This document shows positions 1 to 14,214 of a stretch of DNA of 64,000 nt, piece by piece. A model generated the notes under the pieces. That model was not told the DNA's origin. It searched no databases and saw only the letters and a list, made by a program, of their open reading frames with translations. The stretch lies in the NCBI GenBank assembly GCA_026708265.1, contig JAPOVI010000229.1, positions 6,847 through 70,846 of the forward strand, given 5' to 3'. Source of the stretch: Acidobacteriota bacterium. Its GTDB lineage: Bacteria; Acidobacteriota; Vicinamibacteria; Vicinamibacterales; UBA8438. How positions within the stretch are numbered: the first letter of the stretch is position 1; each line of letters opens with the position of its first letter. The position numbers were made by a program, and so were the translations under genes.

Positions 1-640
1 CGCTCACCTTCTTGCGGTCGCCGAGGATCCCCACCCCGGTTCCGATGGCCGACTGCGTGCGGAACGCGTCGATCGAGTGCACCAGCCTGCCGTCGGAGGC
101 GCTCGCGAAGTGATAGTGGCCGTCGTCGAACGCCGCGCCGTAGGCGAGGACGTACGAGCCGGTCGGGAGGGGGAGCACCATCAGCTCCGGCTGTTGCCCG
201 TCCCCCAGGCGGGCGCCGGTCTGCTGCTCGAGGCGGATGCCCGACTCGGCGGCGGTGATCGCCGGCACCGTGCCGAGAGCGAGATTCTCATGGAGCGTTC
301 CGAACGCCGACACCGTCACGCCGCGCTCGAACTGCCGCGCAACCCCCCCTCCGAGCACCGGCACGCCGCCGACGAGCTGCGTCGCGTACTCGTGTGTGCG
401 GCCGGGCAGCGTCGGGTCGTCACTGCGGGACGCGACGACCAGCTCGCCGGTGCGCAGCATCCCGTCGATCCGCGCGTCCCAGGCCTGCAGCTCGCCGGGT
501 GTCGCCCCGGACCCTACCGCTACCGGCACGGCGGTTGCGGCCCCCCCCGGCGGCACCTGTGCGGCAGCGGGCACGCTCGCCGCCAGGGTCGCAATCGTCA
601 TCAGGCCGATGCGGGCTCTCTGTTGCGTTCGTCTCAGCAT
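1..640 (-). CDS. secreted protein; N-terminal part of a probable M4 (thermolysin-like) metallopeptidase. The 3' end lies outside the window.
   Basis: Absent from the ORF track because it runs off the left edge. Reverse-strand ATG at 640-638 is preceded by AGGAG. My translation is MLRRTQQRARIGLMTIATLAASVPAAAQ (signal peptide) ... DAFRTQSAIGTGVGILGDRKKVS. The GxGxGxLGDxK stretch is the conserved entry into the catalytic domain of thermolysin-family proteases. The catalytic HExxH is not in the window. Confidence 0.5.
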   Translation of the reverse strand, partial: MLRRTQQRARIGLMTIATLAASVPAAAQVPPGGAATAVPVAVGSGATPGELQAWDARIDGMLRTGELVVASRSDDPTLPGRTHEYATQLVGGVPVLGGGVARQFERGVTVSAFGTLHENLALGTVPAITAAESGIRLEQQTGARLGDGQQPELMVLPLPTGSYVLAYGAAFDDGHYHFASASDGRLVHSIDAFRTQSAIGTGVGILGDRKKVS

Positions 641-676
641 CTGTCGTCGCTCCTGCCGTCCGCTCGTCCCGCGGCT

Positions 677-1501
677 TCAGAATCTGAGTCGCAGGCCGCC
701 GCCCACGTGCAGCCCGCCCGCCGGCACGCCCACCGTGCCCCCGCCGCCCGACGCCAGGTCGACCGTCGCCCGGCTGTAGCGCGCGAGCACCCCCACGCCG
801 GCGAGGTCCGAGAAGTAGTACGCGAGGTCGGCGCCCACGTTGAACCCGACGCCCGTACCGGACTGCCCGCCGGCGATCGCCCGGTCGTAGGTAGCGGCCT
901 CGTAGGGATACCGCTGCCGGAACTGCACGTCCGTCACGAGCTCCTGCTGCAGGCTGATGACCGTCGGCCCGCCGAAGAGGGTGACCGTCAGCGAATCGGT
1001 GACGGGTGCGAGGTACTGCGCCTGGAGGTGAACGCCGAGCTCCTGGCGGGTGAGGTCCGCCGCGACGCCGGCGAACTCGCGGTCCCGGCTGTGGAAGAAC
1101 GGGTGCGGCGCCCGCCCCGACACCGTTGCCTCGCCGTTGCCCTGGATGAAGGACACCGCCACCGCCAGCGCGAAGTTGTCGCCGAGGCGATACCCGGCGC
1201 TGGCGTCGAAGGCAGGCGCCGACGCCGGCCGGTGACCTCCCGTGAGGCGGGCCTCCTCCTGCGCCGCCGCCGCGGACAGGAGACCCACCGGCGTCGCCGC
1301 GTAGACGCCGCCGGACTCGCCGAAGACGACGTCGTCGGCGAACTCGGCGGCCAGTGCCTGCAGGCCGCCGTTGATGGTGACGAAACCCCGCCCGTCCCCT
1401 GCCCTCGTCTGGGCCCCGGCGGGCGCGGACATGGCCGCTACGACCGCGGCGGCAAGCAGCCAGGCCACCGCCGGCCGCCGTCCTTCCGTCTGGTTGATCA
1501 T
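677..1501 (-). CDS. outer-membrane beta-barrel protein (OmpA-like/porin-like barrel, 274 aa)
   Basis: This is the C-terminal 274 codons of track ORF 677..3388(-). It starts with MINQTEGRRPAVAWLLAAAVVAAMSAPAGAQ (signal peptide), shows an alternating hydrophobic pattern and ends in ...GGGLRLRF with a terminal Phe, which is typical of OM barrels. The ATG at 1501 was verified in sequence (atgatcaac on the reverse strand). Confidence 0.75.
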   Translation of the reverse strand: MINQTEGRRPAVAWLLAAAVVAAMSAPAGAQTRAGDGRGFVTINGGLQALAAEFADDVVFGESGGVYAATPVGLLSAAAAQEEARLTGGHRPASAPAFDASAGYRLGDNFALAVAVSFIQGNGEATVSGRAPHPFFHSRDREFAGVAADLTRQELGVHLQAQYLAPVTDSLTVTLFGGPTVISLQQELVTDVQFRQRYPYEAATYDRAIAGGQSGTGVGFNVGADLAYYFSDLAGVGVLARYSRATVDLASGGGGTVGVPAGGLHVGGGLRLRF

Positions 1502-1664
1502 CTGTATCGAGCGTGCTCCACGGGCGCACCCCAATCGGGAGAACTCGCGCCCGCTTGGAATCCGTGTGGCCGGACTGGTCCCGCGGCCGATACGGGCGGA
1601 CCGCTGCGCCCGCCCGTGGCGTTCACGACAGTTCACTATACTGGAAAGGCCTGCGCGGCCCGGC

Positions 1665-1752
1665 GGATCGGTCCCGTCTCGCGCTGGGAGTCTGCGCCGC
1701 AGAACAGGCGTTGCGACAGCTCTCGCGCGCGGACTGCAGCCCGCCGTCGGGG
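1665..1752 (-). repeat. dispersed intergenic hairpin element, copy A (core TTCTGCGGCGCAGACTCC on the minus strand = 1687-1704)
   Basis: The reverse complement aligns with copies at 11024-11116 and 23667-23756. It has the same 18-nt core, a left arm GCAGTCCGCGCG and a downstream GACGGGACC. It lies upstream of, and in the same orientation as, the OMP gene. Confidence 0.6.
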
Positions 1753-1858
1753 CGGGCTGAGACCCTGCGGTCGCGACGGGAGTTCGCCCCAGCGGGAGGA
1801 CCTGCGACGGCCCCGATGCGGCGCAGGCTCCCGGCGGGCGCAGTCGGGAGAAGAGGTA

Positions 1859-3234
<1,376 letters not shown>

Positions 3235-6838: not shown

Positions 6839-7498
6839 ATGCCCGATCCGCTCCCGACCGCTACTGTTCTGCTCGGCACCACCGCCACGCTGGCCGTCGT
6901 CCACGCGTTGCTCGGCGTCGACCACTCCCTTCCGTTCGTCGCTCTCGGGCGCGCCAGGGGCTGGTCGCTGCGGCGCACGCTGTTCGTGACCGCGGCGTGC
7001 GGCGGCGGGCATGTCCTGTCGTCCGTCCTCATCGGAGCGGTGGGGGTCGGCCTCGGCATCGCCACCGACGCCCTGCTCTGGCTCGAGTCCGCGCGCGGCC
7101 AGTGGGCCGCCGCGCTGCTGATCGGCTTCGGCCTCGCGTACGCGGCGTGGGCCGTCTTCCGGAGGCTGCGCGCGAAGGACCGGGCGACCCCGAGCGCACA
7201 GACCACGGCCGCCGCTCGCGCCACGCCCTGGGCGCTCTTCGTCGTCTTCGCGCTCGGCCCGTGCGAGCCGCTCATCCCGCTGATGGTAGTACCCGGCATG
7301 GCCCGCGACTGGTTGACCCTGGGGGCCGTGATCGCGGTCTTCGGGGCGCTCACGATTGGCGTCATGCTGGCCGCCGTGGCTGCGGGCTACCGCGGCATCG
7401 AGCTGCTGGGAACGAGCCGCATCGGCGGTCACGCCGACCTCGCGGCGGGACTCGTCGTCGCGGCGAGCGGTGCCGCGGTGCTGTTTCTCGGCCTGTAG
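6839..7498 (+). CDS. polytopic membrane protein, possible Ni/Co-type metal transporter (UreH/DsbD_2/NicO-like)
   Basis: About six hydrophobic segments, a His/Asp motif VHALLGVDH in TM1 and GPCEPLIPL in a later TM. The family assignment is by motif resemblance only. Confidence 0.55.
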   Translation: MPDPLPTATVLLGTTATLAVVHALLGVDHSLPFVALGRARGWSLRRTLFVTAACGGGHVLSSVLIGAVGVGLGIATDALLWLESARGQWAAALLIGFGLAYAAWAVFRRLRAKDRATPSAQTTAAARATPWALFVVFALGPCEPLIPLMVVPGMARDWLTLGAVIAVFGALTIGVMLAAVAAGYRGIELLGTSRIGGHADLAAGLVVAASGAAVLFLGL

Positions 7499-7533
7499 CG
7501 CGTCCACACCGACGGTTCCGCCGCAGCTTCGTC

Positions 7534-7559
7534 GTCGGGCGGCTTCGCTAGCGCCCGAC
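7534..7559 (+). terminator. GC-rich hairpin downstream of the membrane-protein gene
   Basis: GTCGGGCG (7534-7541) and CGCCCGAC (7552-7559) form a perfect 8-bp stem with a 10-nt loop. There is no U-tract. Confidence 0.3.
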
Positions 7560-7646
7560 ACGCACCTGACCCCGAGACTCGACCACCGGCAGGCGGGTGC
7601 CTGCGTTCAAGCCGATCCGATCCGATACGATCGGAGACTGCGAACC

Positions 7647-8696
7647 ATGCTGGAACGACTCCACATACGAAAGCTCCGCGGCCTTCGCGATCTGAAGGTC
7701 GAGGGCCTGGGTCCCGTCAACGTCGTTGCAGGCAGGAATAACGCGGGGAAGACGACCTTGCTCGAGGCCATCTTCCTCCTCGGCGGAGCAGGTAATCCGC
7801 GCCACGCCCTCAACAGCCATGTCGTTCGCATGGAGCCGGCTGACGCGACTCCCGCATCAGTCTGGGAGAGCGCTTGGGCGCCGCTCTTCTACGATCTGAA
7901 CGTGGACGAGCCGCTGACGATCTCCGGGCATCATTCTGCGGTTGGCGACATGACCCTGAGCGTTGCGCTCGCCCGGCCGGTCACGACCGAAGTGCCTCGT
8001 GGTGGGAACGATCGACCACTTACGACTGACCGCCCCTTCGAACGTGCGCTCAGGTTCACGTACGTCGATCCTCGAGCCGGACAACTGGAGAACCAAGCCA
8101 GAGAGATGCCCGACAAGGTGGCGTTCGACCAGAACGACACGTACTCTCCATTCAACGGGACAATCCTTCAGCCGAGGAGTAGCAACGTCAATGAGGACGC
8201 AGTCCGCCTGGGACGGCTGAGGAAGCAGAAACGCGGTGATCTGTTGCTGGAGGCGCTTCGCGTCCTGGAGCCCAGGTTGCAGGCCGTCGAGGACAACGCC
8301 TCGAGCGGCGCCCCGATGATCTGGGTCGATGTCGGCCTGAGGGAGCTCGTGCCGTTGCCGACCATGGGAGCCGGGATGACGCACGTCACGCGCCTGGTCC
8401 TGGCTGCCGCGATGGTGCCGGACGGCATCGTACTCGTGGACGAGATCGAGAACGGACTGCACCACTCCGTGCTGCCCGACGTCTGGCACGTCGTGGGCAA
8501 GGCCGCAGAGCAGTTCAACGTCCAGTTCTTCGCGACGACGCACAGCTTCGAGTGCGTGCAGGCCGCGCGAACGGCCCTCGGATCAGACGGTTTTCGGCTG
8601 CACCGACTCGACATCGTCAAGGGCGAGAACCGCTGCGTGACGTACGGCCCGGAGGCGATGGACGCGGCCATCCGCCACAACCTGGAGGTCCGCTGA
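7647..8696 (+). CDS. ABC/SMC-type (AAA_21/AAA_15-like) ATPase, 349 aa
   Basis: ATG at 7647 is in frame in track ORF 7356..8696. Walker A GRNNAGKTTLLEA, signature-like PTMGAGMTHV, Walker B IVLVDEIENGLH, H-loop FFATTHS. Hand-counted lines give about 57-65% G+C, well below flanking genes. Confidence 0.85.
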   Translation: MLERLHIRKLRGLRDLKVEGLGPVNVVAGRNNAGKTTLLEAIFLLGGAGNPRHALNSHVVRMEPADATPASVWESAWAPLFYDLNVDEPLTISGHHSAVGDMTLSVALARPVTTEVPRGGNDRPLTTDRPFERALRFTYVDPRAGQLENQAREMPDKVAFDQNDTYSPFNGTILQPRSSNVNEDAVRLGRLRKQKRGDLLLEALRVLEPRLQAVEDNASSGAPMIWVDVGLRELVPLPTMGAGMTHVTRLVLAAAMVPDGIVLVDEIENGLHHSVLPDVWHVVGKAAEQFNVQFFATTHSFECVQAARTALGSDGFRLHRLDIVKGENRCVTYGPEAMDAAIRHNLEVR

Positions 8697-8698
8697 AC

Positions 8699-9394
8699 AT
8701 GGACCCCGTGGAGATCGAGCGCCCGGTACAACTCCTGGTCGAAGGCAACGACGCGCGCAACTTCTTCGAGGCGCTTGCCCAGCATCTCGGACTCGGGGAC
8801 ATCCAGGTTCAGAACTACGGCGGCGTCAACGATCTGGGCGGATTCGTCAGCGCGTTCGCGGCGGCGCCGGGATTCACGGGCGTGACGAGCCTCGGCGTCG
8901 TGCGAGACGCGGAACGACCGGCCGACGGTGCACCGGGAACTCCGCGAGAGGACGCGCCACCGGCGGCGGCCCGTCGTGGGACGGAGCGCTACGCCGACAG
9001 GGCGTTCCAGAGCGTGTGTACCGCACTGGGCAACGTCGGTTTGCCGGTACCGGCACGTCCCGTCGAGAAGTCGGCATCGAATCCCGCGGTGGGCGTGTTC
9101 ATCCTGCCAGGCGGGGGGGACGACGGGATGCTCGAGACGCTGCTGTGCAGAACGTTCGCCGGGTCGCCCGTCGATGCATGCATCGAGGGTTTCTTCAGGT
9201 GTGTCGCGAGGTCAGAGATTCCGATTCGTCGTCCGGACAAGTCCCGAGCGCGTGCGTTCCTGGCCACGACCCAGGATCCGCAGGTATCCGTCGGCGTGGC
9301 AGCACAGCGCGGCCATTGGGACTTCGATCACGACGCCCTTCGCGGCGTCCGCCGCTTCCTCAGGAGCTTGGTCGGGGACACGCCGCCGGCGTAA
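8699..9394 (+). CDS. small Toprim-like partner protein (DUF3226/DUF4276/RloB-like), 231 aa
   Basis: ATG is 2 nt after the ATPase stop. N-terminal QLLVEGNDARNFF is the VEGxxD Toprim Glu motif seen in OLD-family/DUF4435-type partners. LGVVRDAE sits in the DxD-equivalent position, and later there is ILPGGGDDGMLETLL. A Pro/Ala-rich insert (RPADGAPGTPREDAPPAAARRG) follows the DAE motif. Confidence 0.6.
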   Translation: MDPVEIERPVQLLVEGNDARNFFEALAQHLGLGDIQVQNYGGVNDLGGFVSAFAAAPGFTGVTSLGVVRDAERPADGAPGTPREDAPPAAARRGTERYADRAFQSVCTALGNVGLPVPARPVEKSASNPAVGVFILPGGGDDGMLETLLCRTFAGSPVDACIEGFFRCVARSEIPIRRPDKSRARAFLATTQDPQVSVGVAAQRGHWDFDHDALRGVRRFLRSLVGDTPPA

Positions 9395-9510
9395 GCAGGC
9401 GGTCTCCGGCGAGTCTGGTGGTCACGAATGCAGGTCCCGCCCCTGCACGCGCTTCGGCGCAGCGTGCGACCTGCGCTGTCGACTGGCCTTGAGGCCGGAG
9501 GCGACGCGGC

Positions 9511-10344
9511 GTGCTCGCTCTCCTGAAACGCTTCGCCGGCCGCTTCGCGCTCACGCTGACGCTCGTCGTCCTCGAGGCGGCGGCCTGGACGCTGTTCCCG
9601 CTCGCGCTCGGTCGGGCGATCGACGCCGCCCTCGGCAACACGCGCCGGGGCTTCTACGAGCTCGCCGGACTCGGCATCGCCGCCATGGCCATCGCGATCG
9701 CCCGGCGGGTGGTCGACAGCCGGGCGTACGCGCGGATCTATGCCCGGCTGGGGGAGGACCTCGTGCTCCGCGAATCCGGGGGGAGCACGTCGGCGCTCAC
9801 CGCGCGCCTGGGCATGCTGCGGGAGATCGTCGAGTTCTTCGAGAACTCGCTCCCGAACCTGGTCAACAGCACCGTGGGTCTGGGCGGCACTCTCCTCATC
9901 CTGTCGGCCCTCAACCCGGCGATCGCCCTCGGCTGCCTCGGCGTCGGCACGGTCACCGCGGCGATCTACGCCCTGACGGGGCGGCTGACGACGCGCTACA
10001 ACCGCGGCCTCAACGACGAGCACGAGCGCCAGGTGGACGCGGTGAGCAGCGGCGACCCGCAGCGCGTGGGCAGCCACCTCCGCGAACTGATGCGCTGGAA
10101 CATCCGGCTCTCCGACCTCGAGGCGGCCAACTTCGGGGTGGTCTGGCTGTTCATGGTCGGCCTGCTGGTCTTCTCGGTCAGCGCCGCGGCGGAAGCGACC
10201 ATCGAGTACGGCAGCGTCTTCGCCGTCGTGATGTACGTCTTCCAGTTCGGCGACTCGGTGATCCTGCTCCCGTTCTTCTACCAGCAGTGGCTTCGCCTCC
10301 GAGAGATCTCCGGGCGCATCACCGCGTCCGGCGTCGCCGCCTGA
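9511..10344 (+). CDS. ABC exporter transmembrane domain protein without a nucleotide-binding domain
   Basis: GTG start. About six TM helices with type I ABC exporter TMD spacing (FYELAGLGIAAMAIAIARR..., coupling-helix region RLGMLREIVEFFENSLPNLV). It stops after the TMD with no Walker motifs. Confidence 0.7.
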   Translation: MLALLKRFAGRFALTLTLVVLEAAAWTLFPLALGRAIDAALGNTRRGFYELAGLGIAAMAIAIARRVVDSRAYARIYARLGEDLVLRESGGSTSALTARLGMLREIVEFFENSLPNLVNSTVGLGGTLLILSALNPAIALGCLGVGTVTAAIYALTGRLTTRYNRGLNDEHERQVDAVSSGDPQRVGSHLRELMRWNIRLSDLEAANFGVVWLFMVGLLVFSVSAAAEATIEYGSVFAVVMYVFQFGDSVILLPFFYQQWLRLREISGRITASGVAA

Positions 10345-13607: not shown

Positions 13608-13719
13608 CGGAGAGCGTGAGCGCGCGGGCGTGGCCCCACGGGCGAAGGCCGTAGCCTCCGTGGGCCGGAGACGGACGTCCCCCGTCGCTGCGGGAGGCGT
13701 CCGCCGAGTACGGCAAGCT

Positions 13720-14214
13720 TCAGCGGTGAGCCGCTCGCCGCTCGAGCGCCAGGAGGGACTCCTTGACCGGCAGGCCGCCCCCGTAGCCGATGAGCGTGCC
13801 GTCGGCGCCGATTACGCGGTGGCACGGCACCACGATGGCGATGGGGTTGCGGCCGTTGGCGGCGCCGACGGCGCGCGAGGCGGTCGGCCGGCCGATGCGC
13901 CGCGCGAGCTCGCCGTAGGAGATCGTCTGGCCGTAGGGGATGCGGCGCAGCTCGTCCCACACCCGCCGCTGGAACGGGGTGCCCTCGGCGGACAGCGGGA
14001 GGTCGAAGTCGCGCCGCGTGCCCTCGAAGTACTCCGCGAGCTGCCGCTCCGCTTCCCGTAGCGCCGCCGGCGGCGAGGTCCCGGCCGCCCGCCACGAGCC
14101 GTCGGGCTCGCACGCCGCCGACCGCGGCAGGTCCACGCGCTCGATCCCGCGCGCGCTTCCCACGACGCGCATCGTGCCGATCGGAGTCTCCAGATCAAGG
14201 TAGTTCCTGGGCAT
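13720..14214 (-). CDS. ogt: methylated-DNA--protein-cysteine methyltransferase
   Basis: Active site [10 protein letters not shown] plus the YGELARRIG helix-turn-helix region. ATG at 14214 is preceded by AAGGAAGGA. The longer track ORF extension is Arg-rich. Confidence 0.9.

Follow-up and report, generated by a model that had tools for sequence, protein, structure and literature searches.

An ABC ATPase of the AAA_15/21 type combined with a Toprim domain is a plan common to OLD, Gabija, PARIS, AbiL, MADS3-4, HEC-01, and HEC-04 (PMC11464382, PMC13064643, bioRxiv 10.1101/2024.01.29.577857). The best-understood precedent is PARIS, in which a hexamer of AriA sequesters the nuclease AriB until a trigger frees AriB, which cleaves tRNA-Lys (PMC11464382, PMC13064643). 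Further candidates come from the PDC set, 145 in all and described as untested, which was drawn from genes located inside BREX, DISARM, or type I restriction-modification (RM) systems (bioRxiv 10.1101/2024.01.29.577857); PDC-M38 is listed in the supplement of that study (Payne et al., bioRxiv 10.1101/2024.01.29.577857). Here, we analyze two adjacent genes, encoding an ABC-type ATPase and a DUF3226 protein (the partner), in a 64,000-nucleotide stretch of contig JAPOVI010000229.1 (assembly GCA_026708265.1, Acidobacteriota, order Vicinamibacterales), which we call the window. We read the pair as an abortive-infection, or conflict, module of the OLD/AbiL/PARIS kind with a predicted defense function and mechanism, and we put the probability of this reading at about 0.68.

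The pair belongs to a catalogued family. A PDC-M38A-type ATPase adjoins a PDC-M38B-type partner, 2 nucleotides (nt) apart on the same strand (by hidden Markov model [HMM] scores and adjacency), and all 10 of 10 distant DUF3226 homologs examined match PDC-M38B over the full length of that model; PDC-M38 is therefore the DUF3226 pair. The suggestion of the first-pass annotation that the genes fit no named family and might be an undescribed variant is overstated and finds no support: the partner passes the DUF3226 threshold, and the pair corresponds to PADLOC PDC-M38.

Gene layout, folds, and conserved residues

The ATPase (gene 1), delimited by the list of open reading frames (ORFs) and direct translation, begins with ATG and comprises 349 amino acids. 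It carries the full ABC-type motif set ascribed to it at first pass, namely, GRNNAGKTT (residues 29-37), MGAGMTH (240-246), IVLVDEIE (261-268), and ATTHS (296-300), and the Pfam scan and AlphaFold2 model agree with the earlier statement that it lacks any fused nuclease, helicase, or transmembrane domain. Pfam assigns it to AAA_21 (3e-19) and AAA_15 (3.5e-13). Its best PADLOC model is AbiLi PDLC02336 (2.6e-45), which aligns residues 1-349 with profile positions 1-340 of 340; PDC-M38A scores 6.5e-45, and the weak matches to HEC-01A and mad3 score far below both. Among the AriA models in PADLOC, the generic AAA_21-like PDLC02980 matches the protein over its length and the AriA-specific PDLC02979 matches residues 1-44 only, and a sequence search of the PDB returned N-terminal P-loop matches only. 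The AlphaFold2 model (64 homologs; predicted local distance difference test score [pLDDT], 86.5) has an ABC head, a beta-rich insert at about residues 90-175, and no coiled coil; as modeled, the insert stands where the coiled coil would be. Its best Foldseek matches are Ts OLD (Thermus), PtuA, Rad50, SMC heads, and GajA (E of ~1e-11). The 64 homologs all keep K35, D265, and H299, and nearly all keep E266. Homologs are uniformly ~349 amino acids long with an MLERL-like N terminus.

The 231-amino-acid partner (gene 2) contains LLVEGNDARNFF (residues 12-23), VVRDAE (67-72), and GGGDDGMLETLL (138-149), and the translation also holds the Pro/Ala-rich insert that had been noted after the DAE motif. 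It matches Pfam DUF3226 (PF11536) at 4e-20 and 72.9 bits, against a gathering threshold of 27, with residues 11-225 on profile positions 3-207 of 208, and PADLOC PDC-M38B weakly (3.5e-6). Searches of Pfam and PADLOC gave no match at an E value of ≤1 to PF14491 (DUF4435), the AriB model, PF13707 (RloB), or the AbiLii model; PADLOC gave none to HEC-01B or mad4, and a sequence search of the PDB yielded nothing significant. Foldseek places the AlphaFold2 model (72 homologs; pLDDT, 89.8) closest to 6njv and 6nk8, the C-terminal Toprim-plus-helical regions of class 2 OLD proteins (E of 8.5e-4 to 2e-3, probability of ~1, template-modeling [TM] score of 0.39-0.47), followed by Ts OLD of Thermus and then by the Toprim domain of retron Eco2. 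The partner, earlier thought Toprim- or OLD-like, is accordingly modeled as such with a moderate match, and we predict that it is an OLD-like Toprim nuclease with a helical domain. Pfam (AAA_21 and DUF3226), PADLOC (AbiLi and PDC-M38), and Foldseek (OLD nuclease regions) all bear out the proposed architecture of an ABC ATPase with a small Toprim/OLD-like partner.

The Pro/Ala-rich insert is probably disordered: mean pLDDT per 10-residue block is 51-68 over residues 71-100, and segments 78-83 and 89-93 fall below 50. Only the closest relatives have it in long form; in most homologs, it is short or absent, and identity between the window partner and the alleles of two relatives (L167 and L168) is lowest within it (0.32).

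Catalysis by the Burkholderia (Bp) OLD protein relies on the Toprim glutamate E400, on E404, on D455 and D457 of the DxD motif, on E508, where the helical domain begins, and on K562 (PMC6755086). The window partner has putative counterparts that follow this order along its predicted secondary structure: E15, D18, D70, E72, E146, and K181. In an alignment of 80 partner sequences, which includes metagenomic homologs of only 27 to 50% identity, E15, G16, D18, D70, P137, G143, E146, K181, and G199 are invariant, and position 72 is D or E in 74 of the 80. We consider E15, D18, D70, E72, E146, and K181 putative metal-site and catalytic residues. A pair of cysteines is also widely retained (C161 in 79/80 sequences and C168 in 78/80).

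Gene 2 begins 2 nt past the TGA codon of gene 1, so that the description of two tightly linked genes holds, and a Shine-Dalgarno-like GGAG(G) lies ~10 nt 5' of each start, that of gene 2 falling within the coding sequence of gene 1. The left limit of the cassette had been set at position 7560, which is 87 nt upstream of the gene 1 start and inside the leader; the genes themselves are as placed. Overall G+C is 64.2% in gene 1 and 67.8% in gene 2, compared with 70 to 74% in six neighboring genes, so the cassette is indeed lower in G+C, although the 70 to 80% first estimated for the neighbors was too high. G+C at third codon positions (GC3) gives the clearer compositional signal (80% and 78%, compared with 90 to 96% in the same neighbors), and the GC3 deficit is common to every cassette allele in the related genomes.

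The 148-nt leader holds a GC hairpin, GCAGGC-GGGT-GCCTGC, and a perfect palindrome with a 6+3+6 layout (TCCGATACGATCGGA), which overlaps the gene 1 ribosome-binding site. The leader is kept in the cassette-bearing window, L003, L167, L008, and L085 and is not essential, because it is missing from the L168 allele; a promoter scan found no sigma-70-like promoter. The hairpin and palindrome could serve as a translational or operator control element.

An accessory and exchangeable module at an intergenic hotspot

The cassette sits between the genes of a 219-amino-acid membrane protein and an ABC_membrane_3 protein, and this site differs among close relatives. A genome scan with the ABC_membrane_3 protein placed the host lineage in the Vicinamibacterales. 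The pair is present there in L001-L004, L167, and L168. The site is empty in L005 and L006, which have spacers of 182 bp and 73 bp and flanking proteins 91 to 95% identical to those of the window, and in L007 it is filled by an unrelated minus-strand insert of ~1.4 kb. In L008, it is decayed, with ~84 N-terminal residues of the ATPase fused to ~65 C-terminal residues of the partner. (The long ORF of the L007 insert has no Pfam family, and our suspicion that it encodes a transposase was dropped.)

The variable block is the entire intergenic stretch, from about 7499 to 9510: similarity to L005 and L006 breaks off just past the stop codon of the gene for the upstream membrane protein and is not regained until the ABC_membrane_3 start codon. 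The 219-amino-acid protein, which has no Pfam match, is 83 to 94% identical in every syntenic relative, whether or not it carries the cassette, and the ABC_membrane_3 gene adjoins occupied and empty sites alike. We found no integrase, transposase, tRNA gene, or terminal or flanking direct or inverted repeats at the cassette, repeats being at chance level and the only tRNA gene (Leu) lying 10 kb away. The lack of repeats, tRNA gene, and integrase at the block edges therefore suggests homologous recombination through the conserved flanks and not site-specific insertion, which we considered and rejected.

Divergence of the cassette is decoupled from that of its flanks, with synonymous divergence (dS) either far lower or far higher. 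Between the window and L001, dS is 0.03 in the cassette and 0.20 to 0.25 in the flanks (ATPase and partner, 99% and 100% identical; flank proteins, 90 to 95%), whereas between the window and L168, it is 0.81 to 1.09 in the cassette and 0.17 to 0.29 in the flanks (69% and 60%; flank proteins, 91 to 96%). The comparison with L167 is mosaic, with dS of 0.34 to 0.54 in the cassette and 0.27 to 0.58 in the flanks and identities of 87% for the ATPase and 66% for the partner (flanks, 85 to 95%). The ratio of nonsynonymous to synonymous divergence (dN/dS) is 0.07 to 0.39 throughout, and both genes are therefore under purifying selection.

The first-pass annotation had proposed an accessory module, and the empty sites of L005 and L006, the remnant in L008, the different filling in L007, and the decoupled dS all support it; synteny and composition are not conserved in all relatives, as they would be for a core gene pair, and the accessory status stands. 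The pair is a long-term yet dispensable, exchangeable resident of the hotspot, and it behaves as a swappable accessory cassette, putatively immune in role, in Acidobacteria of soil and sponges. A single site with the cassette intact, swapped, empty, or decayed makes a clean example of defense-hotspot dynamics in an uncultured Acidobacteria lineage.

The same comparisons bear on whether the pair could instead be a housekeeping unit for nucleic acid processing or repair, composed of a RecF/Rad50-like ATPase and an RNase M5-like or DnaG-like Toprim enzyme. The ATPase has weak N-terminal matches to RecF, Rad50, and RecN models and a fold resembling Rad50 and SMC heads, and the OLD active site resembles those of RNase M5 and DnaG (PMC6755086). 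However, NCBIfam scores are far below the cutoffs (the best, RecF, reaches 40.3 bits against 172 and covers the N-terminal 60 residues only), the pair is missing from close relatives with 91 to 95% identical flanks, its divergence is decoupled from those flanks, its GC3 is atypical for the genome, and no neighborhood is conserved across taxa; we regard a housekeeping role as very improbable.

The PQQ dehydrogenase and MGMT genes, 4 kb downstream, enclose a second hotspot. In L001, L167, and L168, it holds a module of an AAA_21 ATPase (370 amino acids) and a 177-amino-acid partner that begins VVLLCEDAQTE, contains VVIDAD, and is Toprim-like in look, with no match in Pfam or PADLOC. The window retains only an 18-amino-acid C-terminal relic of this partner, and relics also occur in L006 and L008. 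In L008, both ATPase-plus-partner modules have decayed alike, an internal deletion joining the N terminus of the ATPase to the C terminus of the partner. We dismissed the idea that the second module is a paralog of the DUF3226 pair: the two partners align with an hhalign probability of 0.2%, and the ATPases are alike in the P-loop region only. In L165, a further Vicinamibacterales genome, a 51 to 56% identical pair lies at a different chromosomal site, next to a MazE/PIN toxin-antitoxin (TA) pair and near an ankyrin-repeat protein.

The ABC_membrane_3 gene was also considered as a third gene of the module and rejected, as 76 of its 80 genome loci lack the pair. Its homologs of 61 to 75% identity (L009-L084) come from metagenome-assembled genomes of Gemmatimonadota (Longimicrobiales, Palauibacter), Alphaproteobacteria, Gammaproteobacteria, Acidimicrobiia, and Binatia, many of them sponge-associated bins and none with shared surrounding synteny, and cross-phylum transfer of this gene is therefore suggested.

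Linkage, family size, and plasmid carriage

The ATPase and DUF3226 genes form a strictly linked unit. We scanned JGI metagenomes with a degenerate pattern and recovered 80 DUF3226 loci, of which 75 have an ATPase homolog directly upstream and on the same strand; of the other five, four have no room upstream, and one has a partial ATPase match. Small plasmids of Klebsiella and Salmonella show the same ATPase-to-DUF3226 order. When 1.84 billion representative proteins were searched with a profile, 4,921 DUF3226 clusters (50% identity) were recovered at an E value of ≤1e-3 and 1,088 at ≤1e-30, and the top 150 family representatives are nearly all stand-alone proteins, mostly of ~200 to 250 amino acids. 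The top match in the representative library, P0241 (443 amino acids), has two DUF3226 stretches, an apparent tandem duplication or fusion. The family occurs in bacteria, on common small Klebsiella plasmids, and probably also in archaea, since one neighborhood with methanogen-type genes suggests an archaeal host.

No partner gene is conserved across taxa in the neighborhoods of distant homologs. Some homologs lie near or within RM or DISARM-like gene sets, a defense association: L086 and L141 have type I HsdR; L094 has DUF499, DUF1156, and SNF2/PLD; L154 has SNF2 and a type III Res-like gene; and L163 has SNF2-NOV_C.

A plasmid search with the window partner as the query gave no match, which reflects a limit of sensitivity, because a low-GC family member matched 128 plasmid records in PLSDB that carry the pair, 122 of them from Klebsiella. 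Most of these plasmids are ColE1-type replicons of 3.8 to 4.2 kb from Klebsiella pneumoniae (>100 records), whose cargo is an "ATP-binding protein" and a "DUF3226 domain-containing protein" with little else besides Rop, helix-turn-helix, or MobA genes. The plasmid proteins are true homologs of the window genes (hhalign probability: partner, 98.6%; ATPase, 99.8%) and match the same PADLOC models, the Klebsiella homolog covering PDC-M38B over its full length. PHROGs and BFVD searches with the partner gave nothing.

That the pair is essentially the sole cargo of these small plasmids brings in its main rival explanation, a selfish addiction module similar to a TA system, in which the nuclease is the toxin and the ATPase is the antidote and which would persist by killing any cell that has lost it, thereby stabilizing, for example, small plasmids or genomic regions, with no primary role in phage defense. 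The tight coupling of the two genes and the location among housekeeping genes in the window also fit this explanation, and PARIS itself acts as a type II TA pair (PMC11464382). Loss is tolerated, however, as attested by clean empty sites and an internally deleted remnant in close relatives; some homologs lie inside RM or DISARM-like loci; and TA behavior and defense are not mutually exclusive. On balance, we hold selfish addiction to be unlikely.

The plasmid homologs are likewise consistent with cargo or maintenance functions of mobile elements, such as the exclusion of plasmids or competition between elements, in place of immunity to phage, as are the unrelated insert at the same hotspot in L007 and the second ATPase-plus-partner hotspot 4 kb away. 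Against this, the cassette is not bordered by an integrase, a transposase, a tRNA gene, or terminal repeats, and the ORF of the L007 insert belongs to no Pfam family. We judge such a function improbable as a separate explanation, and it overlaps our preferred reading of an abortive-infection module, because a defense directed at mobile DNA is a function of the same sort.

Table 1. Positions of the module, its flanks, and related loci
Feature	Sequence	Coordinates	Strand	Basis or remark
Left hotspot boundary, outside module: conserved 219-aa membrane protein	Window	6839..7498	+	No Pfam match
Leader and left edge of variable block	Window	7499..7646	+	Similarity to L005/L006 empty sites ends here
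GC hairpin in leader	Window	7589-7604		
Palindrome in leader	Window	7621-7635		TCCGATACGATCGGA, TCCGAT-ACG-ATCGGA
Shine-Dalgarno-like GGAG of gene 1	Window	7633-7636		
Gene 1, 349-aa ABC-type AAA_15/AAA_21 AbiLi-like ATPase	Window	7647..8696	+	Pfam, PADLOC, AlphaFold2, Foldseek
Walker A (K35)	Window	7731-7757	+	Gene 1
Signature-like MGAGMTH	Window	8364-8384	+	Gene 1
Walker B and D-loop (D265, E266)	Window	8427-8450	+	Gene 1
H-loop (H299)	Window	8532-8546	+	Gene 1
Shine-Dalgarno-like GGAGG of gene 2	Window	8684-8688		
Gene 2, 231-aa DUF3226, predicted OLD-like Toprim nuclease plus helical domain	Window	8699..9394	+	Pfam, PADLOC, AlphaFold2, Foldseek
Pro/Ala-rich disordered insert of gene 2, aa 73-102, lineage-specific	Window	8915..9004	+	Low pLDDT, alignment
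Cys pair of gene 2 (C161, C168)	Window	9179-9202		
Downstream spacer and right edge of variable block	Window	9395..9510	.	Similarity to empty sites resumes at 9511
Right hotspot boundary, outside module: 277-aa ABC_membrane_3 protein	Window	9511..10344	+	Pfam PF13748, 2.4e-40
Second hotspot	Window	13608-13723		
Relic of 177-aa partner	Window	13670-13723		18 aa, C-terminal
Second module	L001	16032-17674		
Second module	L167	13082-14724		
Second module	L168	12959-14598		
Unrelated insert	L007	8570-9950	-	~1.4 kb
Decayed modules	L008	9428-9864, 14239-14554		Internal deletion
Pair at different chromosomal site	L165	3985-4634		51-56% identity
Plasmid pair	L169 (NZ_CP024435.1, Klebsiella p48896_6)	437-2184		
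Plasmid pair	L170 (NZ_AP026957.1)	535-2289		

Predicted function and comparison with described systems

We propose that the locus is a self-contained, translationally linked two-gene module that would combine a minimal AbiLi-like ABC ATPase with a separate DUF3226 nuclease of the OLD-type Toprim-plus-helical fold, with a division of labor into sensor and effector. By analogy with PARIS, OLD, and Gabija, the ATPase would oligomerize via its ABC heads and hold or control the nuclease, and its beta-rich insert might sense an infection cue or a foreign-DNA cue. Binding or hydrolysis of ATP would then free or activate the nuclease, which would cut nucleic acid by two-metal catalysis, candidate targets being tRNA, which AriB cleaves, or DNA, the target of OLD and GajA, and the result would be growth arrest or abortive infection.

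Several observations weigh against this interpretation. The pair is syntenic in several relatives and is therefore a long-term resident and not a fresh insertion. The structural match of the partner is modest (TM score of 0.39-0.47, E of ~1e-3), and the mapping of its residues onto OLD is drawn from motif order and fold similarity. Most homolog neighborhoods, that of the window included, consist of ordinary metabolic genes and are not defense islands, and no family member was found in IMG/VR viral contigs or in a phage genome collection. HEC-01, a candidate of the ATPase-plus-Toprim type that has been tested, gave no defense in assays (Payne et al., bioRxiv 10.1101/2024.01.29.577857), and a text search of the literature found no mention of DUF3226, PF11536, or PDC-M38 and no published experiment on DUF3226 pairs.

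A bolder proposal, which we consider doubtful, is that DUF3226 pairs make up a large uncharacterized immune family whose mode of action differs from those of PARIS, OLD, and Gabija; a possible mechanism would join an ATPase with a beta-rich sensor insert and no coiled coil to a nuclease gated by a redox or metal switch at Cys161/Cys168, and balancing selection, together with recombination via conserved flanks, may keep divergent alleles at set positions in the chromosome. Should the prediction of an abortive-infection module be true, the pair would add one more, large branch, found across many phyla, to the ABC-ATPase-plus-Toprim immune systems, and the Klebsiella plasmid homolog offers a tractable enterobacterial route into PDC-M38. 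The main value of the locus lies in this homolog and in the population genetics of the hotspot.

Early on, the pair had been called PARIS/AbiL-like. Its architecture and AbiLi-type ATPase sustain that label, but strictly defined it is neither PARIS nor AbiL: the partner has no match to DUF4435 (AriB) or to RloB/AbiLii. The locus compares with the described systems as follows.

(i) PARIS likewise sets an ABC ATPase (AAA_15/21) beside a separately encoded Toprim nuclease. AriB has DUF4435, for which the window partner has no match, and AriA is a hexamer-forming protein of ~55 kDa with helical inserts (IS1 and IS2), whereas the window ATPase has 349 amino acids, a beta-rich insert, and no coiled coil. 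No PARIS structure is among the top 50 Foldseek matches listed for either model.

(ii) The OLD proteins (class 1 Ts OLD and P2 Old; class 2 Bp and Xcc OLD) and GajA supply the best structural matches for both window proteins, and from motif order and fold, the two-metal and lysine catalytic positions of OLD all appear to have conserved counterparts in the window partner. OLD and GajA hold ATPase and Toprim in one polypeptide, whereas the window has two ORFs split by a stop codon; unlike in Gabija, no UvrD-like GajB helicase is adjacent, the neighbors being the membrane protein and the ABC_membrane_3 protein.

(iii) HEC-01 and MADS3-4 are split ABC ATPase-plus-Toprim pairs with the same general architecture, but the window partner matches neither HEC-01B nor mad4; one distant DUF3226 homolog matches mad4 weakly.

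(iv) AbiL of Lactococcus is also a two-gene system in which an ABC ATPase comes with a Toprim/OLD-like nuclease. The AbiLi model spans the window ATPase from end to end, and AbiLii, like the window partner, superimposes best on OLD structure 6NJV. As no match to AbiLii or RloB was found at an E value of ≤1, the window partner belongs to a different partner family from AbiLii.

(v) PDC-M38 is made up of these two families, arranged alike, and its context within BREX, DISARM, or type I RM systems is likewise seen at L094 and L141. The window pair differs in not being embedded in a defense system and in its divergent partner, which has a weak HMM score and a Pro/Ala-rich insert of ~30 amino acids. 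Architecture, fold, and pairing are already known through Pfam and PADLOC, and the finding is therefore not highly surprising and not a new kind of system; the window module is a divergent member of a catalogued, uncharacterized family.

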